This document shows positions 1 through 52,934 of a DNA stretch of 64,000 nt, one piece after another. How positions within the stretch are numbered: position 1 is the first letter of the stretch; every line of letters starts with the position of its first letter. Location: IMG/VR virus record IMGVR_UViG_3300045988_138358; one strand, 5' to 3'. The position numbers and the translations under genes were made by a program. A model generated the notes under the pieces. The model worked only from the letters and a program-made list of their open reading frames with translations, made no database searches and had not been told where the DNA came from. The DNA comes from a virus. Taxonomy: Duplodnaviria; Heunggongvirae; Uroviricota; Caudoviricetes.

Positions 1-617
1 TCACTTGCTGAGTTAATTTCGGAGAGTAAAACTTCGGCGGCTGTCACTGCTGCCCGTAAAGCATCAATTTCATCCTGAGTAATGACTGGAGCCTGAGCGC
101 CCCCAGCACCACCCTGTCCACCATTGCTTTCACCACCACCAGCACTTCCGGTAGCTTCAATTTTTGCGTTAATGGCGTTCATGGCGGTTTTCAGAGCATC
201 AAGTTTTAGCGCCGTCAATGCGTCCGTTAGAGATTGCGGAATGGAAACATTCCCCATTCCCTCAACAAGGGCGAAAGCAGGTATGGGGGTCAGCTCGTTA
301 CCTTTTGCGTAGCATTCCCAGCCAATCTTCATCTGTAACAGCTCTGATGGTTTGGTGTATGGGGAAAGAGAATCAGCCAGTAATGAAGACGCTTTGCTGG
401 CCTCATTGAGCTGTTCGGAAAATCCAAGCAATTGAGTCGTCCAGGCCGACACTGAATCAGGATAGGTTTTATCAGGGTGAACCATTTCCTGTATTGCGCT
501 CGCGAGTGACGAGGCTTTTGAAGAAGCCGCCCGGCTTATGGTTATTGATTCCGGTGTGGAGGCACCAGCACCAGACAGAATTTGGAAGGCTTTAACTTCA
601 CCTATTGAATCAAGCAT
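1..617 (-). CDS. hypothetical phage structural protein, Gly-rich; 3' end lies beyond window start
   Basis: Open frame on minus strand from ATG at 615-617 (MLDSIGEVKAFQ...) running off position 1 with no stop; start overlaps stop of upstream PAAR gene in a TAATG junction. Not in the ORF track because it is incomplete. Confidence 0.4.
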   Translation of the reverse strand, partial: MLDSIGEVKAFQILSGAGASTPESITISRAASSKASSLASAIQEMVHPDKTYPDSVSAWTTQLLGFSEQLNEASKASSLLADSLSPYTKPSELLQMKIGWECYAKGNELTPIPAFALVEGMGNVSIPQSLTDALTALKLDALKTAMNAINAKIEATGSAGGGESNGGQGGAGGAQAPVITQDEIDALRAAVTAAEVLLSEINSAS

Positions 618-2758: not shown

Positions 2759-3406
2759 ATGGACATGATTATCCTGGTAGCAAGTCAAAAGGGAGGCTGT
2801 GGCAAGTCAACCACCAGCGTCAATATTTGTGCCGAGCTGGCCCGAAAAAACAAAGATGTCGTCTTGATTGATGCTGATAAGCAGGGAACGGCAGCTCGAT
2901 GGGCGTCAGACCGTAATTCGTCCGAAGTGACACCAGTTATTCATTGCGTCCAGAAGTTTGGAAATATTCGAGAAACTCTGCTCGATCTTAACAATCGATA
3001 TGAATACGTGGTTGTTGATACCGCAGGTCGTGATAGTAAAGAGATGCGCACAGGTATAACGGCGGCGGATATTCTATTGGTTCCATTCAGGCCGTCTCAG
3101 CCAGATTTGGACACGCTGGCACACTTTGTTGAGGTGTTTGAAGAGGCTTTGGATCTGATGCCTAATCCCAATATTAAGGCGTGCGCAGTCTTAACTATGG
3201 CCCCGTCAAATCCGGTTGTGAATGAAGCAAATGAGGCCAAAGAGTATCTGGCAGAATATCCGCAACTGAAATTGCTGAAAACCATTATTCGCGATCGCAA
3301 GGTTTACCGCGACTGCATGGCTGAAGGAAAGGGTGTTGTTGAGATGGATAACGGTAAGGCGAAAGGTGAAATTCAGATGTTAGTTAAGGAGTTGCTAAGT
3401 GATTAA
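2759..3406 (+). CDS. ParA/ParF-type small Walker partition ATPase
   Basis: 215 aa; deviant Walker A VASQKGGCGKSTTS; size typical of type Ib ParA/ParF. Confidence 0.85.
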   Translation: MDMIILVASQKGGCGKSTTSVNICAELARKNKDVVLIDADKQGTAARWASDRNSSEVTPVIHCVQKFGNIRETLLDLNNRYEYVVVDTAGRDSKEMRTGITAADILLVPFRPSQPDLDTLAHFVEVFEEALDLMPNPNIKACAVLTMAPSNPVVNEANEAKEYLAEYPQLKLLKTIIRDRKVYRDCMAEGKGVVEMDNGKAKGEIQMLVKELLSD

Positions 3407-3683
3407 ACGTCGAGAACCAGCTAAAGCGCCTAAGGCTACTGATCCGGAACTTGAGCGAAGAATTGAAGAGTTCGCCAGCAAAGCGGATTTAATCCCGGAT
3501 GAAATTACAACGGGGAAGGTGCTTGATAAAGATGCGCCGCGCGACTTTAAATCCATACGCGTGAGCTTTAATGAATATGAGTACGGGGTGCTCGATGCGT
3601 TAAGCAAAAAGCTTAACCGCAGCAAATTGAACCTGATTCGACATGCCATCCTCATGCTTGCTGAGTCAGAGGATGCTAAATGA
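3399..3683 (+). CDS. ParG/ParB-like small centromere-binding protein (putative)
   Basis: 94 aa basic protein overlapping the end of the ParA-like gene, as in type Ib partition operons. Confidence 0.5.
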   Translation: MIKRREPAKAPKATDPELERRIEEFASKADLIPDEITTGKVLDKDAPRDFKSIRVSFNEYEYGVLDALSKKLNRSKLNLIRHAILMLAESEDAK

Positions 3684-3802
3684 TACCGATTTGATGCCTT
3701 ATTGGCGTCTATCGTGTACCAGTGCAATAATGTGTCAAAGTGGTGCCATAATGGTGTTAATATACAGCCATATTGATATCAAATTGACACTGTATCGGCA
3801 TC

Positions 3803-3830: not shown

Positions 3831-4732
3831 TTGAGCGTTGCAATGATATCGTTAGCGACTATTCGCGTGGATGCTTTGCATGACACGGACCGTCTGGCTG
3901 GCATGTGGTACAGCTTAAAACCGTTTCTTTCGTACAATTCGCGAATTTTTGGCGCGCCACTGTTTGTTATTACTATCTTTGCACCGCGCTGGTGGGCCGC
4001 CACCAACAGTGATACAAGCCGTTTTTGTTCATCGAAAAGGAAGCTATTTCCTGAATAGCTGGTAAATCCCTCTGTATCTGGCAGCGGCTCATACGGCGGA
4101 TCACAAAAAATCACATCGTCTTCACCAGCCGCCTCGATGACACCAGCAAAGTCACCTGATACAAAGGAAGTGTTTTTGAGTACGTCATCAGCCAAAAATG
4201 CCTTCATCTCTGCATGTGGGAAGTAGGGCGCTTTGTATTTGCCATACCCCACGTTGAACTCGCCATTTTGGTTGTACCGCGTTACGCCATTAAAACAGTG
4301 ACGATTAAGGTACAAAAATGCGGCAGCATGATGTAGTTGGTCATACTTTCCTCTGTTAAATGCCTCACGCACTTCGAGGTAAGCGTCAGCGTTGTTGTAA
4401 TTTTTGAAAAAACTATATGACAGCGTGACGAGCGAATGTCCTTCTCGCTGCAATGTCTGATAGAAGTTAATCAGGTCACCGTTAATATCATTAAGCAGGT
4501 TGTGGCGAAATCCTGCATTCGTAAATACGGAACCGCCACCAACGAATGGTTCTATTAACCGCTTACCGTGTGGTAGATGCTCAAGCACTGTAGGCAATTC
4601 TGAGAATTTACCACCTACCCATTTGAATATCGGACGCTCATATTCATCCGGAGTCCGAATGGTGCGCATATAGCTAATTTCAGCCATCGTATCCTGTTTT
4701 TCTATGGCTATGCTTGCTATAGATTTACTCAT
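3827..4732 (-). CDS. dam: DNA adenine methyltransferase (Dam family)
   Basis: KWVGGK, NRHCFNG and DPPY motifs of Dam-type N6-adenine methyltransferases; start set at MSKS, 2 nt after the stop of the upstream gene (ORF track extends to 4828). Confidence 0.85.
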   Translation of the reverse strand: MSKSIASIAIEKQDTMAEISYMRTIRTPDEYERPIFKWVGGKFSELPTVLEHLPHGKRLIEPFVGGGSVFTNAGFRHNLLNDINGDLINFYQTLQREGHSLVTLSYSFFKNYNNADAYLEVREAFNRGKYDQLHHAAAFLYLNRHCFNGVTRYNQNGEFNVGYGKYKAPYFPHAEMKAFLADDVLKNTSFVSGDFAGVIEAAGEDDVIFCDPPYEPLPDTEGFTSYSGNSFLFDEQKRLVSLLVAAHQRGAKIVITNSGAPKIRELYERNGFKLYHMPARRSVSCKASTRIVANDIIATLK

Positions 4733-5477
4733 AGAGCACCCCCTTATTCGCTTCGAAAACTGCCTTTGCGAATCCATGTGGAGTAGCACTTCGAAAATTA
4801 GCCCTGTCAGGCCCTGGTGGCGCGGCATGGATTCTGTTATCTGGCTTGCCTAATGATTCGTCCATTAGGGCATCAGGCATGACAAAGCCCTGGCCGCTCC
4901 AGAGGCATGTTTTTTTTGTGTAGTTATCTTCCTGACAATATGCAGTGAAGAAGTAAGGGTGAAAGATGTGATCTGGCTTACGCCAGAATGTCGATATTTT
5001 GCTGACCGGATTTTCAATCATGTACGGACAACCGATCATCTTTGCAATGTCATAACACTGCCAGACAACCTGCATTGCTTTGAACTGGAAAACCGGATCT
5101 TTATTAGCCTTGTCCGAAAACCAGCGCGCGCCGGAAACAGCCAGGTCAGTACACGGTGGGAACCCGGCCAGAAACACGATGCGCTGCAAATTCTTACGGA
5201 GAAAAGCGTATACTTCATCGCTATCGATGATCGCACTAATACGCGTCAGAACGGCACCTGATTGCATCCGCTCGTCACTGGTCGATAAGTGCTGTGGATC
5301 GACGATAGCGGCATCGACACCGTATTCCAGCCAGGGGGCAACCATTGCCCCCGTAAAATCACAAAGACTCACAACAAGCTGTCGGTTATTATCGTTCTGC
5401 TTCACCGCCAATGGCCTCCACCAGCGCGTTAAACAGTGCAGATAATTCGCCCGTAAAGAGCACGAAATCAGCATCAA
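4725..5477 (-). CDS. C5-cytosine methyltransferase-like protein (short)
   Basis: FLAGFPPC (PC motif) and IENP (ENV-like) motifs; true start may be a GTG nearer the rdgC stop since the track start overlaps rdgC by about 90 nt. Confidence 0.55.
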
Positions 5478-6300: not shown

Positions 6301-6344
6301 CCAATTGTGTTAGAAAATTCTATTCAATTATCTAACACAATTGG
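6301..6344. promoter_or_regulatory. inverted pair of TGTTAGA operator-like half-sites upstream of rdgC
   Basis: CCAATTGTGTTAGA ... TCTAACACAATTGG, perfect 14-bp inverted repeat with 16-bp spacer, ending 7 bp from the rdgC start. Confidence 0.55.
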
Positions 6345-37437: not shown

Positions 37438-38012
37438 CAGAATGCCTCCCAGTCAGTTGCGATAATATCCACGCCAGTTGCGAACCAGTCTGTCTGCGCC
37501 TGTAAATCCCCATTCATCATTACCAGGCGAGGCATAACCATCACATCGCACCCTTCCACAATATCGAATGCCTCTTCCGGCAAGAATTCGAAGAGCTTTT
37601 CTTTGCTGCCAATGCTGCCACGGAACATCGATAAATAGCTCCCTTTAGGCCATGATGCCCGGCGGGCATCCAGCCCCTTCATCATCCAGAACATGGCGGC
37701 AGAAAAATTGATGTTCTTTTTGGCGATGAAAACATTATTGGCTTCTGTTTGCTTCAGAAACTTAATTAGCCTTGCCATCGACTCGGATAACGCTACGTAT
37801 GGCTCATGATTGGCTGCGGACACGCTCACACCATGTAATCCAACACTGACTACCGTCATATCGCCGCTTTGAGCGGTTTCAATGTTGACACCTTTGCGAA
37901 CTAACGAGGCATAAAGTTCCTCTCGCTTTTGTGTCCAGCGTTCCCGCTGACCGATGAAGTCACTCAATATGAGGTCTGCTTCTGCATACGCGTTATCGTT
38001 CGCCGTTAACAT
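37437..38012 (-). CDS. hypothetical protein
   Basis: 191 aa; AMFWMMKGLDARRASW motif similar to the protein at 29291-29755. Confidence 0.45.
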   Translation of the reverse strand: MLTANDNAYAEADLILSDFIGQRERWTQKREELYASLVRKGVNIETAQSGDMTVVSVGLHGVSVSAANHEPYVALSESMARLIKFLKQTEANNVFIAKKNINFSAAMFWMMKGLDARRASWPKGSYLSMFRGSIGSKEKLFEFLPEEAFDIVEGCDVMVMPRLVMMNGDLQAQTDWFATGVDIIATDWEAF

Positions 38013-38465
38013 AACGTCTCCTTTTTACACGCGCGACCATCCCTCGGTTAAACCGATAGAGATGTCGAAACTTCGTATTAATTAAGGGTTACAGCCTGAG
38101 CGGCTATATGATGAATTGAAAGGAGTTGTGGCGGTGGTGCCTCCACCTGCCAGGTTAGCCACTCCTGGCGACGTCACTTATCAGAACGTAGTGAATGAAA
38201 ATGGCTTCGTCACGAGCGCATAGCCGCAATTACCACAACGGAAACGGCGCTCACGCTAATTAAACGCCTTTTCCTGTTGTGCGCCGTACTCTTCCGGCTG
38301 TCACACCGAATCGCCAGGGTGGTGAGTCCTCGGTCCGACGATATGAACGGGGCTTGCACATTCCGGCTACCTGGTTTGTTGCCTGAGCTAGGGGAAAAGG
38401 TAACCCCTTTAACGTCACCAGACCGCTAACGACGCATGTGCCATACGCCGTGTTACAACCAAATA

Positions 38466-38541
38466 TGGTGGCCCCTACCGGACTTGAACCGGTGACCGTG
38501 CGATTATGAGTCGCCAGCTCTAACCACTGAGCTAAAGGGCC
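38466..38541 (-). tRNA. tRNA-Ile (anticodon CAT, ileX-like; Met not excluded)
   Basis: Reverse complement folds as a canonical cloverleaf with anticodon loop CTCATAA and encoded CCA; very close to E. coli ileX as recalled. Confidence 0.8.
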
Positions 38542-38953
38542 AGATTACTGTTAATTCCGCTTACGCTTTTTGCCAGAACCGCGTAAGGCTTTTGCCGCTT
38601 GCTCGATCCCATATGCAACCACCAGCAGAAATAAAAATGTCCAACCAGGGTTCTTATCGGCAAAGGCCCAAAAATCCATCACTTGCAGCTACCTTTTAAG
38701 ACAAAACGCCATTGCTGTTAGATTGCGGTGCCTGGTGCCTCCAGGTGACGTTAACCAGTTAACAATTAACGCCGGGATGTTTGATTTAACCACTAAGGAG
38801 GATTGTTTTAACTGTTCCGCGTGCGCTTAGCCGCATTCACCGCAATGGTAAGAGCACTTGGCTGGCTGGGCGGCGATGACGCCTGTACGCATTTGGTGAT
38901 CCGGTTCTGCTTCCGGCATTCGCTTAATTAGCCAAATACTCTTAACGTTGCGC

Positions 38954-39040
38954 TGGCGGAGAGTAATGGAATCGAACCATCATCGCTTGCGCAATGGGAC
39001 GGTTTTCAAGACCGCTTGAGCACCATGCTCCCTACTCTCC
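38954..39040 (-). tRNA. class II tRNA, probably Ser (anticodon TGA), atypical D-arm
   Basis: 87 nt; 7-bp acceptor stem, anticodon loop CTTGAAA, long variable arm, T-arm GATGG-TTCGATT-CCATT, G73, CCA; D-arm does not fold canonically. Confidence 0.45.
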
Positions 39041-39185
39041 GGCCGTTGTGGTGGCCGGTACTGAATCTCCGGCATACGGTGCAGCCAATTAGGACTACGG
39101 ACGATCACCGCTCGCGAAAGGGAAGATTTGCGGCCGCATTTCCCTAACATCCAAGAAAGCTATCGCATCAGTCTGCGAATCCACC

Positions 39186-39277
39186 ACAACGTTGAGAACA
39201 CTGGTTGTCACGCTGCAACGCAACATTTATTCGTAGATTGGGATATGACCCCGTTACGTCAGTGTTCTCAACGTTGT
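39186..39277. repeat. perfect 18-bp inverted repeat with 56-nt loop
   Basis: ACAACGTTGAGAACACTG at 39186-39203 and its exact reverse complement at 39260-39277, in the non-coding tRNA region. Confidence 0.6.
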
Positions 39278-39420
39278 AGTACCGGTTACGGTTCCGGCCA
39301 GGCCTCTTCCTCAACGGGGTATTCTCCATACGGACTACCGTTTATTGGTCGTTCCTGCGGTTTATGTTGTGAAGCCAGATGCTTATCTTCTGGTTGCTTC
39401 AAAGAGCTGCACTTCATCAC

Positions 39421-39500
39421 AACGGTAAGGGTACTTCGTAGGGATTCGAACCCTCTGCCAAGCACGGCGATCTCCGACGTCGCAAAATACCCTTACCTGT
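39421..39500 (-). pseudogene. tRNA-like remnant
   Basis: GGGTTCGAATCCC T-arm-like element enclosed by a 10-bp helix (GGTAAGGGTA/TACCCTTACC); no canonical cloverleaf can be drawn. Confidence 0.25.
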
Positions 39501-39505
39501 TGTGT

Positions 39506-39581
39506 TGGTGCCGATTAACGGACTCGAACCGCTGACATCCTGCTTACAAGGCAGGCGCTCTACCAACTGAGCTAAACCGGC
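39506..39581 (-). tRNA. tRNA-Thr (anticodon TGT)
   Basis: Canonical cloverleaf, anticodon loop CTTGTAA, T-loop TTCGAGT, CCA encoded. Confidence 0.85.
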
Positions 39582-39583
39582 AT

Positions 39584-39660
39584 TGGCGATGGTGGGTGGA
39601 TTCGAACCACCGACCGACAGCTTAGAAGGCTGCTGCTCTATCCTACTGAGCTACACCATC
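39584..39660 (-). tRNA. tRNA-Arg (anticodon TCT)
   Basis: Canonical cloverleaf, anticodon loop CTTCTAA, T-loop TTCGAAT, CCA encoded; 2 nt from tRNA-Thr. Confidence 0.8.
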
Positions 39661-40163
39661 ACTTGCCGGTTACGTCTCCGGCGAGGGCTTCCACCTCCGT
39701 ATGCTTTTCGGCGCACCGCGCCCTGGCTGCAATTCGGTAACAGGGGATGCACAACCCTGGCTTCCAGCGTGATTAGCGCCTTCAGCATGACGGGATATAC
39801 CCGTAACCAACAAACTTTCCCATATACCATCAAACAATGGCTGTTACGCGGGAGGGACGTAACAGGTAAGGGCGCTGACCAGAAAGACCTGACCCTTCTC
39901 ATTCATCTGGTTAATCACACCAGCGCCCTTGCCTGTTATGCCTCCCCGTTCCCTAATACACAGACGGGGACACTCTGCGGTCGATTTTTTGACGGGGGAC
40001 GACTCATACCCCGTGGCGTCTGGCTTCTTAGGCCGCTACCATCATCAGATCATCGTTTGCATTTACTTTAATGGTCGGTTTCTAAACCGCCGCAAAGCCG
40101 CTAACCATGACGAAAACCCTAAAAAAGCCCACCCGAAGATGGGCAAATACGCTACATCTCACA

Positions 40164-40242
40164 CAAGAAAGAAGCCGACTGCCTGAGCTGGATTCACTTT
40201 CAAATGCCCGCAGAAAGGGAACACAAGTCGGCTTCTTTCTTG
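40164..40242. repeat. perfect 17-bp inverted repeat with 45-nt loop
   Basis: CAAGAAAGAAGCCGACT at 40164-40180 and its exact reverse complement at 40226-40242. Confidence 0.6.
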
Positions 40243-40899
40243 ATGCGGCACTCTCTCCGCCCGTCACCGCTCTGTCTCGGTTGTCGCGTTTGCCACGCCA
40301 GCCATAACGAGGTTTAAAGTCTTTGCACGTTTCCATCACTCGACTGCCGTCTGTGGCTGTTCGTTGCAGCGGGGGTGCCTCCCCCTGGGGATATCCCCGG
40401 CCTTACCCCATTCTTTCAAGACACAATGCAAGGCCGCATCCGCATAGGTGCATTACCGCAACATTAAGGAGACTTAGGGCAAAAGGTAATCGCCACAAAA
40501 AAATCCCTATGCCTCCTTAATGTTGAGGATGTGCATTGATGATGATTCGATGCGGCGAGTCCCGTTACTCTCTGCCGGACCATCATCAATGAACATCTTA
40601 AAAAGACCTTCCGTGGCTCAACATGTCTTGTCGTTTACTCCGTAAAGTGCTCTCTCTGAAACCACTTTACGCACTAAACCTGCTGAACTTTGGCTTGCTC
40701 GGTGCCAAAGCGAATCCCTGTATGCATGTAATTTTCTAACACTTTAATTTGTTATTTGCTGGTGGGCGAACAACAACCAATAAGTGACTATCAAGCCCAG
40801 CAAGCGAAATGTGGCAACGCTCCACCAGCAAGGAAAATTCTAAGTTAAGTTACTCTCACAATCAATATGTTCGTTTGGTGAAATTAGATTTCTAACACA

Positions 40900-42106
40900 T
40901 TATTTCCCATAAAGATCTTCTACGCCCCCATTCTTCTTGTCCCATTCGTTAGCCCACACCCGGCAGGCATCAATAATTTCTTGACGACGGTCGCCCTGCA
41001 TAAAGGGGATGCTTTCATGAAAACTACTTGGGATACAGGCCACGCTGAATACGGTATCAAACGCAGTCTGTTTGATAGCTTCCAACGTCTCTGGGCGCAT
41101 TTTCAATTCATCGATCGGCGCATCCTTAGAGTCCATAATCCGGCGATGCAGGCGCGGGAAATCAGTCTCCAGGTACGCCATAATTTTATCTGCCAGGCAT
41201 TCGTCTATATCGGTATTCCAGTCCGTTTCGAAGCCGGGCAGGCGATAGTAAAGCGGCGTTCCCCATACTGATGGGATCACATCCATCGTCAGCAGGCGGT
41301 TGGTTCTAATTTGTTGATGGTAATTAGCCGTCAACAGAGCTTCACCACGCTGACCAGTCTCCGCAACCAGACCATGCGGGTACTCATGGATATAGGCAAT
41401 AGCATCCACCCCGTCATACATGAGCGGGAATGTCTCTGGCCTTTGTCCCATACCACAAGCGCGGTTCAGATCATGACCAAGCTGTGAGCACTCTCGTTTC
41501 AGCGTTTCAATAATGTTCTGCGCTGCTGCTAACTTTTTACGCAGTGTGACGCCTTCGCCTTGATACTTAATGCATTGCTGATTCAGCTCTGTTAAACGCT
41601 CTTTTAGTTCCCGACGCTCTCTTTTCAGCGCACGGTTATCCTTCTCCGCAACATCCAGTCGTTTTGACAGACTGGCTGGATAGTCTTTTTTGTAACGACT
41701 CAAATCGGCTTCTGCGGATTTGCGCAGTGTGTTTGCCTGTTCAAGACGCGCTTCCAGATTGCCGATCTCACTACGCATATTCGCGGCAAATTGATTAACA
41801 GCATTGCCAAGACTTTCAACTGTCGCTGATACGCCTGTGACTTGTGAAAAACGGATCAAGCCATCATTAACGGCTTGTTGATATTCCTCAAACTGATCCA
41901 CCAGCTTGTTGTAATCAACCGTCCCTTCCTCAAGTAGCTGGTTGATCTCCGCGACCAGGTTATCAGTAGTGGCAATGACGCTCTCATGTAGCCGTCTAGA
42001 CAGGTCATCCCCCGGATTCCGCTTTTGAATAAGGGCGATCTGTGTCCGCAGCGTTTCAATCGCGGCTGAGATGATTTCCAGATTAGAAGTATCAGTTTGT
42101 TGACTC
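40900..42106 (-). CDS. coiled-coil protein, unknown function
   Basis: About 400 aa; long N-terminal heptad-rich region; start at MSQQTD; operator-like motif just upstream. Confidence 0.5.
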
Positions 42107-52512: not shown

Positions 52513-52934
52513 CAGTGTGCCTCCGCAATTCCGGGATTGGTAATATTGCGATACCAAGGATTAGTGTTTGGTTGTGATGAAGTAGAGAAACGGCCAGTCA
52601 GGACGCCATGTTGATCAGGGATCAGAGAACGGGCTTCTTTTTCAGTTGCGGCAATTGCGAAGTGATCACAGTGTTTTTGCAGGGAGTGGAAACGCCAGAT
52701 AAATTCCGGGCGCGAGCAAGGATTGGCATTAACCATAGTTACGGCCTCATTCGTAGGTTTAACAACCTGCGCCCCGCTGCTAAACGGGTGGCAGGACGTG
52801 ACGGGGTTAGCAGACTGGCACGAATGAAACCAGCAGGCCGAAGCCTCCCCATCACGCCCCACCATAATTCGGGCGTAACGTGGTTTTACGGACACAAAAA
52901 TACCGCAATATCGGATATCTGCGGTTGTCCGCAT
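52512..52934 (-). CDS. Icd/Ash-like small protein (tentative)
   Basis: Overlaps the start of the Rha/Ant-like gene as icd does in P1; the 5' part may be structured leader RNA rather than coding. Confidence 0.3.
   Translation of the reverse strand: MRTTADIRYCGIFVSVKPRYARIMVGRDGEASACWFHSCQSANPVTSCHPFSSGAQVVKPTNEAVTMVNANPCSRPEFIWRFHSLQKHCDHFAIAATEKEARSLIPDQHGVLTGRFSTSSQPNTNPWYRNITNPGIAEAH

Follow-up and report, generated by a model that had tools for sequence, protein, structure and literature searches.

The window analysed here, a 64,000-nucleotide stretch of viral DNA (Caudoviricetes), is that of a D6/P1-like phage-plasmid. All four tRNA genes of the window are carried by its minus strand, where they are interspersed with long hairpins, a leader and a small gene (Table 1). 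A 16-nt motif resembling the operator of the P1 repressor C1 occurs 13 times in the window against 0.96 occurrences expected; one of these sites lies upstream of lpa, one near c4, and two flank a predicted promoter upstream of the tRNA array. The P1 C1 operator consensus proper has no match in the 64-kb window. The homologous region of P1 and P7 is annotated as the C1-controlled ban operon, tRNA genes included. Taken together, the orientation of the tRNAs, the P1/P7 ban annotation, the operator-like sites and the predicted promoter suggest that the tRNA and hairpin region is transcribed from the minus strand. Some 2.8 kb, from 40.9 down to 38.0 kb, would thus constitute a largely non-coding early operon, probably repressed by C1, and the counterpart of both the P1 ban operon and the dicBF operon of prophage Qin. 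Its transcript would be a chain of modules, i.e. tRNAs, long hairpins and a small-gene leader, with the two inverted repeats studied here, IR1 and IR2, as two of these hairpins.

Table 1. Features of the tRNA region and related sites, in the order of the minus strand. Positions refer to the window, except for the last line.
Feature	Position	Strand	Description
c4	52784-52869		within the window
C1-operator-like site	40886-40901	minus	AATGTGTTAGAAATCT; upstream of the predicted promoter
Predicted sigma-70 promoter	40837-40865	minus	TTGATT-17-TAGAAT
C1-operator-like site	40730-40745	minus	AAAGTGTTAGAAAATT; downstream of the predicted promoter
Leader hairpin with related stem	40459-40525	minus	15 bp; UCAACAUUAAGGAGGC...GUCUCCUUAAUGUUG
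IR2 hairpin	40160-40246	minus	17-bp perfect stem plus four more minus-strand pairs CGCA/UGUG, one of them G·U
Intrinsic terminator	40121-40144	minus	GCCCAUC-UUCG-GGUGGGC and U6; terminator scan
Family-like hairpin Hd	39846-39950	minus	AUAACAGGCAAGGGCGCUGG...CAGCGCCCUUACCUGUUAC; upstream of tRNA-Arg; also in P1
tRNA-Arg(TCT)	39584-39660	minus	array slot 1; tRNA gene prediction
tRNA-Thr(TGT)	39506-39581	minus	tRNA gene prediction
Family member B85	39419-39503	minus	2 nt after tRNA-Thr; stem base ACAAC-A-GGUAAGGGUA; T-arm-like interior GGGUUCGAAUCCC
Small hairpin directly 5' of IR1	39281-39298	minus	CCGGAACCGUAACCGG
IR1 complete hairpin (family type A92)	39183-39280	minus	outer stem: 21 bp (22 bp counting the flanking pairs)
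IR1 5' arm on the transcript	39260-39280	minus	ACUACAACGUUGAGAACACUG
IR1 interior hairpin A	39232-39258	minus	CGUAACGGGGUCAUAUCCCAAUCUACG
IR1 interior hairpin B	39206-39225	minus	8 bp, three of them wobble pairs
IR1 3' arm on the transcript	39183-39203	minus	CAGUGUUCUCAACGUUGUGGU
Small hairpin in the 3' flank of IR1	39163-39178	minus	GGUGGAUUCGCAGACUGAUGCGA; conserved 3' flank of family members
tRNA-Ser(TGA)	38954-39040	minus	tRNA gene prediction
Family member	38841-38952	minus	3 nt after tRNA-Ser; GCAAC-G-U-UAAGAGUAUUUGG...CCAAGUGCUCUUACCAUUGC, then GGUGAAUGCGGCUAAGCGCACGCGG
STnc100-like leader	38724-38844	minus	81% identity with the Qin dicF-dicB intergenic region / dicB 5'UTR
tciB-like ORF	38551-38682		43 aa; in the minus-strand operon
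tRNA, anticodon CAT	38466-38541	minus	Met according to ARAGORN; P1 homologue annotated as tRNA-Ile2
Short family member Ha	38235-38280	minus	ACAAC-A-GGAAAAGGCG...CGCCGUUUCC-GUUGU
Qin hairpin	L204 3673-3759		AUAAC-G-CGAAAGCGCAUGG...GUUGU; the 5' end calculated for the 190-nt DicF species falls within it

A reading of the sequence alone had singled out two long perfect inverted repeats in this region. Repeat searches recovered both as described. IR1 has a perfect core of 18 bp (39186-39203 / 39260-39277) with 56 nt between the arms, and its full arms extend to 21 nt with 95% complementarity (39183-39203 / 39260-39280). The arms of IR2 (40164-40180 / 40226-40242) are 17 nt long, 100% complementary and 45 nt apart. 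Such stems are indeed far beyond chance: per 64 kb, approximately 1e-4 perfect 18-mer inverted repeats are expected when the loop may reach about 100 nt (64000 x 100 x 4^-18). A scan of the whole window for inverted repeats with arms of 15 nt or more, no further than 150 nt apart, found 13 pairs, and five of the seven with separate arms lie between 39183 and 40602. The description of these sites as free of ORFs was also essentially right: ORFs called mechanically overlap both repeats, and none has a Pfam or NCBIfam match. Neither the D6 record nor any PLSDB plasmid among those listed has a CDS annotated at IR1 or IR2, and the P1 record is alone in showing a doubtful ORF, plp, which spans the IR1 homologue on the opposite strand. 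We rejected a coding reading of the repeats. A plus-strand frame across IR1 is open in all relatives, but its ends shift (86-190 aa) and its course takes it through a tRNA gene in the antisense direction.

The minus strand makes the better hairpin of IR1. At the position where a C/A mismatch limits the plus strand to 18 bp, the minus strand has a G·U pair, and its RNA stem therefore reaches 22 bp. Folding, one of the checks suggested along with the original observation, gave a minimum free energy of -66.6 kcal/mol (z = -6.35) for the minus strand and of -55 kcal/mol (z = -4.18) for the plus strand. Of ten one-sided changes in IR1 orthologues, nine produce a sense-strand G·U or U·G and the remaining one replaces a U·G by a C-G; the copy of P1 has a sense-strand C·A mismatch. 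The 56-nt interior folds into two small hairpins. The first of these (hairpin A) is kept in orthologues with changes from G-C to G·U, and the same module recurs within a type-B member of the hairpin family described below. The small hairpin in the 3' flank corresponds to GGUGAAUGCGGCUGAGCGCACGCGG downstream of dicF in Qin.

The minus-strand RNA stem of IR2 has 21 bp and its 45-nt interior holds one small conserved hairpin. Folding z-scores are better on the plus strand (-4.38) than on the minus strand (-2.94), and the minimum free energy is lower on the minus strand. Among relatives, locus L122 shows two compensatory double changes in IR2 and locus L007 a sense-strand U·G. In the operon leader, 19 nt separate IR2 from a strong intrinsic terminator downstream, and alternative pairings are found further upstream (40435-40602), as one might expect if the repeats were terminators or attenuators of an upstream transcription unit, late or early. 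This is at odds with several observations. No U-tract follows IR1 or IR2, the terminator scan reported neither of them, loops of 45-56 nt are atypical of intrinsic terminators, and the real terminator is a separate hairpin (40127-40144, then T6), which is common to the P1 ban-operon leader. Besides, IR2 and the terminator are about 140 nt apart in L122, and it is the deletion of some 125 bp, by comparison with that locus, that has made them adjacent in the window. We thus regard termination or attenuation as scarcely credible. A DicF-like sRNA made of IR2 and the terminator was dropped as the primary reading on the same comparison, by which the deletion that brought them together removed a dicF-like segment. 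Neither the origin of this closeness in a deletion nor the family of IR1 was visible to the sequence-only reading, which was made from the window alone.

IR1 reads ACAACGTTGAGAACACTG...CAGTGTTCTCAACGTTGT and belongs to a family of hairpins that we defined by the stem base 5'-ACAAC(N)GKTRAG...CTYAMC-GTTGT-3' and a stem of 17-20 bp. At least 20 distinct hairpins share the ACAAC(N)GKTRAG...GTTGT ends. Phage-plasmids of the P1-like and SSU5-like kinds carry them in their tRNA arrays, and lambdoid prophages in the leaders of their early-left operons. Stem length is constant (17-20 bp, or 21-22 bp with flanks) in elements of 66-120 nt, whose interiors (20-85 nt) are unrelated between members. Across 1.7 Mb of loci, 291 places resemble the family and have at least 15 pairs, where shuffled sequences give 3-7. 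IR1 also has the context of the family: it shares the strand of the tRNAs, and a GRUGAAU 3' flank and the small hairpin come after it. The tRNA-Ser gene stands at a constant distance, 145 nt, downstream of IR1-type hairpins. IR2 is another matter. It reads CAUCAAGAAAGAAGCC...GGCUUCUUUCUUGUG, which departs from the stem-base motif of the family, its similarity to type B88 is confined mostly to the 3' arm (z = 4.3, against z = 1.7 for the 5' arm), and its 3' flank, UGUGAGAUGUAGCG, is vaguely similar to that of the family. The sequence of its stem is thus doubtfully related to the ACAAC...GUUGU hairpins. In locus L122 and in the D6 lineage, IR2 holds the slot equivalent to that of the Qin hairpin upstream of dicF.

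Several lines of evidence suggest that the family is maintained as RNA. In the aligned stems 96.9% of cells are paired and 10 of the 18 pairs show double changes; the covariation score of 0.418, against 0.169 in shuffles (0/500 reach 0.418) and at most 0.11 in slid registers, is inflated by ascertainment, as hairpins were collected because they pair. On the tRNA-sense strand there are 50 G·U cells for 11 A·C cells, 62 out of 66 distinct sequences have their better fold on this strand, and it carries a bulged A in all 193 type-B copies. Orientation relative to the tRNA genes is fixed. Hence, the comparison of relatives that had been proposed along with the repeats shows the stems of IR1's family to be conserved, covarying and strand-specific. 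Of the three functions put forward at the outset, the two that involve RNA, i.e. RNase III sites and structured RNAs, are favoured by the G·U asymmetry, the covariation and the fixed orientation, and on the minus strand, whereas a protein-binding DNA site is not supported.

One might nevertheless speculate that these hairpins act as DNA, either as protein-binding sites or as sites of recombination and cassette exchange, resembling attC or the terminal inverted repeats of MITEs, through which tRNA and sRNA modules would pass from phage to phage. Unrelated interiors between conserved ends would fit, as would the AAC...GTT in the stem base (ACAAC|GTTGT is a perfect palindrome) and the sharing of one module set by otherwise unrelated phage families. 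Homology breakpoints between relatives also fall at hairpin edges (39166, 39202, 39271/39280 and 39500, and L204 3752 in lambdoid phages), but ordinary homologous recombination between repeated stems can explain them. The ratio of G·U to A·C (50:11) and the orientation on the transcribed strand are difficult to reconcile with function as DNA. The flanking 7-mers, e.g. CTACAAC / GTTGTGG, deviate from the attC consensus RYYYAAC/GTTRRRY at degenerate positions, and no recombinase is consistently associated with the hairpins, since P1-like, SSU5-like and lambdoid contexts differ and have no integrase in common. No target-site duplication is visible in the flanks of family hairpins. Nor is the family dispersed: a scan of 596 Gb gave 20 matches where about 67 are expected by chance, and the true members are in only a few Enterobacterales phage loci. 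Strand asymmetry, consensus mismatch and absence of dispersal led us to reject attC-like or MITE-like mobile DNA, and a role as DNA of any kind seems to us very unlikely.

The hairpins could also be decayed tRNA genes or neutral relics of the turnover of tRNA arrays, without present function. Type-B elements are tRNA-sized, sit in tRNA slots and keep a strict, tRNA-like spacing of 2 nt after a tRNA, B85 still has a T-arm-like hairpin, and arrays vary in the presence or absence of tRNAs and hairpins. But IR1 and IR2 themselves have no tRNA features, as ARAGORN and the Rfam tRNA model found nothing beyond the four tRNAs even at E < 1. Family members are also found in lambdoid pL-type leaders with no tRNA nearby. 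In no fewer than 20 interior types, compensatory changes have kept stems of 17-22 bp intact, and the persistence of perfect stems of 17-18 bp is not expected under neutrality. We therefore hold decay to be highly improbable.

If the hairpins are functional RNAs, the function could reside in the interior. Under this hypothesis, the conserved stem is a scaffold, and RNase III or RNase P would release from each hairpin a stable small RNA acting in trans. Such an RNA could be an antisense regulator in the manner of P1 c4 and DicF, for example, or a tRNA-like molecule serving as a decoy for host defences that target tRNAs. Interiors are structured and conserved within a type though unrelated between members, modules are swapped among stem types, and a T-arm-like GGUUCGAAUCC module is found in B85 of the window, in a second 85-nt type and in phage F1055. 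Type-B members fill tRNA-sized slots, and in the homologous Qin operon the trans-acting sRNA DicF lies just downstream, before the same conserved 3' block as family hairpins. Yet, no target complementarity was identified, the A110-A120 subfamily (110-120 nt) has no consensus interior structure, and in these closely related plasmids the interiors of one type are conserved no better than the flanks. Rfam, searched at permissive thresholds on the window, P1, P7 and D6, gave no match beyond chance for IR1 and IR2: the matches of IR1 were to microRNA models at chance level (27.6 and 25.8 bits for a threshold of 100), and IR2 had none. The DicF model has no match in the window, P1, P7 or D6, and the C4 model has none on IR1 or IR2. 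A hammerhead or other ribozyme and a c4-like RNA were discarded as identities of the repeats, no model matching them. A literature search on hairpins of the P1/D6 tRNA region found nothing relevant. We consider a cargo RNA unlikely, while acknowledging that it is compatible with processing of the stem by RNase III and does not exclude it. A bolder version would make the ACAAC...GUUGU hairpins mobile non-coding-RNA cassettes, in which the stem of about 20 bp would be a universal scaffold for RNase III excision and for insertion, and the cargo (tRNA-mimicking modules, antisense loops) would be interchangeable, expressed from repressor-controlled early operons in the slots of tRNAs or DicF, with some of the cargo serving to regulate the host or as decoys against defences that target tRNAs. 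It is quite unlikely.

The Qin prophage provides the link to a known enzyme. According to PMC10448788, which cites Faubladier et al. 1990 and confirms the result, RNase III makes the 5' end of a 190-nt DicF species in Qin. A hairpin is present 137 nt upstream of dicF, at the distance of this published cut, and the end of the 190-nt species (3935-190+1 = L204 3746) falls in its 3' arm, a position obtained by arithmetic from the size given in PMC10448788 and not from a mapped nucleotide. Judged from its sequence, this hairpin is a member of the ACAAC...GUUGU family: its arms are similar to those of types B87 and B88 (z = 4.1 to 5.3), its orthologue in phage HannyBb reads ACAAC-A-CG...GUUGU, and in phages cdtI and F1055 the same slot is occupied by ordinary family members. 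IR1's family thus includes a hairpin homologous to an experimentally placed RNase III site, and the match of IR2 is one of position. Stem length agrees as well. RNase III substrates have about 20-22 bp, i.e. two helical turns, and the minus-strand stems of IR1 and IR2 have 22 and 21 pairs; the valley of the enzyme accommodates about 22 bp (PMC6212723). Stems of about 22 bp and a homologous, positionally equivalent Qin hairpin at a published cut give indirect support to RNase III specifically.

Hence, the most likely reading of IR1 and IR2 is as RNA stem-loops of an early transcript under repressor control, comparable in kind to the Qin hairpin that RNase III cuts. We give a probability of somewhat under 60% to the more precise proposal that they are RNase III-type processing and stability hairpins punctuating a C1-controlled polycistronic transcript of tRNAs and small genes, cleavage being suggested by homology and by the geometry of the stems. 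RNase III would cut both stems and split the transcript into tRNA precursors, leader and downstream small-gene mRNA, and the structured ends left by cutting would affect stability, a course of events on record for the homologous Qin hairpin ahead of dicF. By analogy with Qin, the predicted cut in the 3' arm of IR1 would be about 13 nt from the stem base, near 39195. Processing alone leaves unexplained how strongly the sequence of the stem base is conserved and the strict 2-nt spacing of type-B members, because RNase III needs little sequence specificity.

This reading is interesting, yet it invokes no new principle. Should it hold, phage-plasmids of the P1, D6 and SSU5 types, which are common carriers of resistance genes in Enterobacterales, would have in their non-coding "tRNA region" an organised and processed polycistronic RNA, with punctuation hairpins that are also common to lambdoid prophages such as Qin. 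The supply of tRNAs, DicF-type sRNAs and small division-inhibitor or Tci genes would then be linked in one repressor-controlled unit. An uncurated RNA family, absent from Rfam, would gain a testable function, the mosaic junctions of the arrays at hairpin edges would be explained, and at least one annotated ORF, plp of P1, would probably be spurious.

The stable species 1 and 2 of the T4 tRNA cluster and the P1 c4 antisense RNA are structured non-tRNA RNAs with paired 5' and 3' ends that are co-transcribed and co-processed with tRNAs, or processed as tRNAs are. They are substrates of RNase P and lack a conserved long stem base. Their likeness to the hairpins described here is one of resemblance. 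Integron attC sites and the PeSL mobile regulatory cassettes of T4-type phages are in the size range of the hairpins (57-141 nt), and they also combine a variable centre between conserved ends with a strand-specific fold, and they border exchangeable modules. They differ in that the asymmetry of our family fits a transcribed RNA and that one of its members coincides with an RNase III cut. The RNase III signals of the T7 early region (R0.3-R1.3, with R1.1 as the model substrate) and the hairpins of the lambda N-leader and sib are families of related stem-loops that punctuate a polycistronic phage early transcript, with a duplex of about two helical turns whose cleavage separates units and leaves stabilising hairpins (PMC1540722). 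However, the T7 signals have an internal loop that leads to a single cut, and they flank mRNAs, whereas the hairpins here have fully paired stems and large variable interiors, flank tRNAs, and are common to unrelated temperate phages. A further counterpart is the dicBF operon of Qin, which is homologous and has in common the "dicF-like" leader of P1, the GGUGAAUGCG block and the STnc100-like / dicB 5'UTR. Its hairpin has the stem base, 5' bulge and length of the family; it stands upstream of an sRNA, while IR1 stands between tRNA genes and has a perfect and longer stem (22 bp) with an unrelated interior. With IR2 it has the position in common, and barely the sequence. Of these three hairpins, the one of Qin is that for which cleavage has been demonstrated.

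The best-supported reading of IR1 and IR2, the two perfect inverted repeats of the tRNA region, is that they would serve as RNase III-type processing and stability stem-loops within a C1-controlled polycistronic early transcript carrying the tRNAs and a small-gene leader. Both were recovered by a repeat search of the window (see table), and the arms of IR1 can be lengthened to 21 nt with 95% complementarity (39183-39280). The sequence-only reading had judged such stems unlikely by chance, and by our own arithmetic chance would indeed yield a perfect inverted 18-mer with a loop below 100 nt ~1e-4 times per 64 kb. Local inverted repeats of 15 nt or more number just 13 in the whole window; seven of them have separate arms, and of these five fall within 39183-40602. 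The view that these repeats lie in ORF-free sequence also largely held: no CDS is annotated over them in the record of phage D6 or in any listed plasmid, and the ORFs spanning them have no Pfam or NCBIfam match.

The window is a P1-family phage-plasmid, with D6 as its closest relative (95.6% identity over 38000-41000). The four tRNA genes are all encoded on the minus strand. According to record annotation, the P1/P7 counterpart of the region is the C1-controlled ban operon, ordered Pban/Op72, 'dicF-like region', tRNAs, tciABC, another tRNA and ban. The P1 C1 operator consensus, ATTGCTCTAATAAATTT, has no match in the window; a 16-mer resembling it, ATTGTGTTAGAAAATT, is present in 13 copies where 0.96 would be expected. 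One site (37011) lies upstream of lpa, another (53085) near c4, and those at 40730-40745 and 40886-40901 flank the only sigma-70 promoter predicted in the region. They are probably the C1 operators of a D6-type immunity. We infer that the tRNA region is a repressor-controlled, largely non-coding early operon transcribed from the minus strand, and that its transcript is cleaved at IR1 and IR2, with the attendant effects of cleavage.

Coordinates of the features, in the window unless another locus is named
Feature	Position	Strand	Remark
IR1, perfect core of 18 bp	39186-39203 / 39260-39277		spacer 56 nt
IR2, 17 perfect pairs	40164-40180 / 40226-40242		spacer 45 nt
Hairpins with the family motif	38235-38280; 38841-38952; IR1; 39419-39503; 39846-39950	tRNA-sense	
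Carriers of a T-arm-like module	39419-39503; Salmonella phage F1055 (L208) ~400-420		
tRNA, anticodon CAT	38466-38541	minus	
tRNA-Ser(TGA)	38954-39040	minus	
tRNA-Thr	39506-39581	minus	
tRNA-Arg(TCT)	39584-39660	minus	
tciB-like ORF	38551-38682	minus	43 aa; directly after STnc100-like leader
Predicted sigma-70 promoter	40837-40865	minus	
ATTGTGTTAGAAAATT sites	6301-6344, 16792, 20888, 31133, 32534, 37011, 40730, 40886, 42136, 43179, 53085, 54283		6301-6344 is a bivalent palindrome

Several features of the array deserve mention in their own right. The slot of the first tRNA holds Arg(TCT) in the window and Asn(GTT) in P1, P7 and D6, and other relatives carry additional Tyr or His tRNAs; the array thus evolves by slot replacement. 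Unlike D6, P1 and P7, the window lacks tciA. Its tRNA-Ser(TGA) is an atypical class II tRNA, which scores 46.6 bits as tRNA-Sec in Rfam (38957-39041; threshold 47) and whose amino acid tRNAscan-SE also failed to assign in the D6 record. That record (L001, NC_050154) annotates the tRNA genes at 4029-4734 on the strand opposite to the Rfam matches and misses the CAT tRNA at 2971-3043. The P1 'putative lipoprotein' plp (L002 4352-4729) lies antisense across the IR1 homologue, the hairpin B85 and the 3' portion of trnT; its window counterpart has no family match, and plp is probably not a real gene. In the operon leader, 40523-40549 can pair with 40435-40479 or with 40576-40602, two mutually exclusive structures.

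Folding favours the minus strand of IR1 by both energy (-66.6 against -55 kcal/mol for the plus strand) and z-score (-6.35 against -4.18). Read as minus-strand RNA, IR1 has a G·U pair in place of the C/A mismatch, and its 22-bp stem closes a three-way junction with two small hairpins. For IR2 the check proposed by the sequence-only reading gave a divided answer: the minus strand gains four pairs (CGCA/UGUG, one G·U), reaching 21 bp, and is favoured by energy but not by z-score (-2.94 against -4.38 for the plus strand).

IR1 belongs to a family of hairpins sharing, on the tRNA-sense strand, the motif 5'-ACAAC(N)GKTRAG...CTYAMC-GTTGT-3', which probably also includes the hairpin at 40459-40525. 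A hairpin finder (at least 15 pairs) gave three places in the window against 0.08, and 291 across loci totalling 1.7 Mb, where shuffled sequences gave 3-7. Pattern scans found the family in ~170 IMG/VR loci and in annotated phages. Members are present in the tRNA arrays of P1-like and SSU5-like phage-plasmids, and also in contigs of Pantoea, Mixta and Citrobacter. Its elements measure 46-120 nt and enclose at least 20 unrelated interiors. At the IR1 locus of one relative (L004) a different hairpin with the same base takes its place, and homology breakpoints between relatives coincide with hairpin edges. MITE-like dispersal was rejected: species-representative genomes amounting to 596 Gb contained 20 matching stretches, fewer than the ~67 expected by chance, and true members in only a few Enterobacterales loci. 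Several family hairpins, themselves not tRNAs, contain a T-arm-like module (GGGUUCGAAUCCC or GGUUCGAUUCC), and in a second 85-nt type GAGUUCGACUCUC adjoins the 5' arm. In an unclassified bacterium known from one metagenome-assembled genome, MAG067, four contigs (L185, L190, L196 and L198) have palindromic elements in which ACAACGTTAAGT...ACTTAACGTTGT enclose a conserved core CTGTCATCCCGAAGC...GGGATGACAG; this is a repeat family of an unrelated organism, and the ACAACGTT end in common with the hairpin family is possibly a coincidence.

Members also occupy regular positions. Type B, marked by GGTAAG and a bulged A, typically sits 2 nt after the last tRNA of a tandem (e.g. Asn-2-Thr-2-hairpin), a tRNA-like spacing. 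IR1-type hairpins lie 141 nt downstream of a type-B hairpin and 145 nt upstream of tRNA-Ser, and type-A members of 110-120 nt precede the first tRNA by 214-268 nt. Processing alone explains neither the 2-nt spacing of type B nor the strong sequence conservation of the stem base, which leaves room for the hairpins being a scaffold that holds cargo; the same two features might reflect recombination at the DNA level, a less likely role.

Covariation, a check proposed by the sequence-only reading, is seen in the stems of the IR1 family. In an alignment of 48 distinct stems of 18 bp, 96.9% of cells are paired and both partners have changed in 10 of the 18 pairs, with a covariation score of 0.418 (0.169 in shuffles, 0/500 reaching it; 0.06-0.11 in slid registers). 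Ascertainment inflates this test, as elements were collected as hairpins. Tests of the strand are independent of this bias. There are 50 G·U cells to 11 A·C cells; of 66 distinct sequences, 62 fold better on the sense strand, the mean difference being 5 kcal/mol; and the bulge lies on the tRNA-sense strand in 193/193 type-B copies. Nine of the ten one-sided changes in IR1 orthologues, the two interior hairpins included, yield sense-strand wobble pairs, the tenth being U·G to C-G. Whatever the size class, the outer helix keeps 17-20 bp, or 21-22 bp when flanks are counted; an RNase III dimer accommodates ~22 bp (PMC6212723), and one set of proximal and distal boxes suffices to specify a site (PMC1540722).

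The family is homologous to, and shares its position with, a hairpin of the E. coli Qin prophage. In the dicBF transcript, RNase III cleavage produces the 5' terminus of a DicF species of 190 nt, the 53-nt form arising by RNase E processing (PMC10448788, citing Faubladier et al. 1990). Counted back from the DicF 3' end, 190 nt lead to position 3746 of the Qin locus (L204), in the 3' arm of a hairpin (3673-3759) reading AUAAC-G-CGAAAGCGCAUGG...CCGUGCGCUUCCG-GUUGU. This hairpin is tied to the family by its orthologue in phage HannyBb (ACAAC-A-CG...GUUGU), by ordinary members occupying its slot in phages cdtI and F1055, and by its 3' arm, significantly similar to types B87 and B88 (z = 4.1 to 5.3). 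Hence, an RNase III cut established by experiment falls within a family member, at a position placed here by size arithmetic. The surroundings correspond as well. The conserved 3' flank of the family (GGUGAAUGCG and a small hairpin) is the sequence following dicF in Qin, the 'dicF-like' leader of P1 is the block upstream of dicF, and the dicF-dicB intergenic region, or dicB 5'UTR, of Qin in E. coli K-12 is matched at 81% identity by the STnc100-like element at 38724-38844 in the window, which scores 39.4 bits where the Rfam threshold is 47. In prophages of Pantoea and Mixta, a cI-like repressor gene (HTH and S24 peptidase) is found just upstream of the hairpins, the order being repressor terminator, pL-like promoter with operators, hairpins, STnc100-like element.

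IR2 is restricted to the D6 lineage (~111 plasmids, mostly 98-100% identical). Its diverged copy in the relative L122 has one break and two double changes that are compensatory, A-U to U-A and G-C to A-U; that of L007 has a shortened stem and a sense-strand U·G. Against type B88, the similarity of the 3' arm of IR2 is suggestive (z = 4.3) and that of its 5' arm is not (z = 1.7). In L122 the P1/Qin-type block upstream of dicF follows IR2 immediately, which gives IR2 the slot that the RNase III hairpin has in Qin. The window and D6 instead have 19 nt between IR2 and the terminator at 40127-40144, a proximity that the L122 arrangement shows to have arisen by a ~125-bp deletion (junction GTAGCG|ATTTGCCC, window 40121-40163). 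The segment concerned, kept in L122, P1 and Qin, consists of the 'dicF-like' hairpin and the seed-like stretch upstream of the conserved terminator. As the adjacency is a deletion product, IR2 as part of the terminator or of a DicF-like sRNA was rejected.

Stem-loops cut by RNase III are classical punctuation of phage early transcripts, and knowledge of the Qin site dates from 1990. No Rfam family matches these hairpins and a literature search gave no description of them; the family itself, its occurrence in tRNA arrays of two phage-plasmid groups that are unrelated, and the common slot architecture of tRNA, hairpin and DicF all appear to be undescribed.
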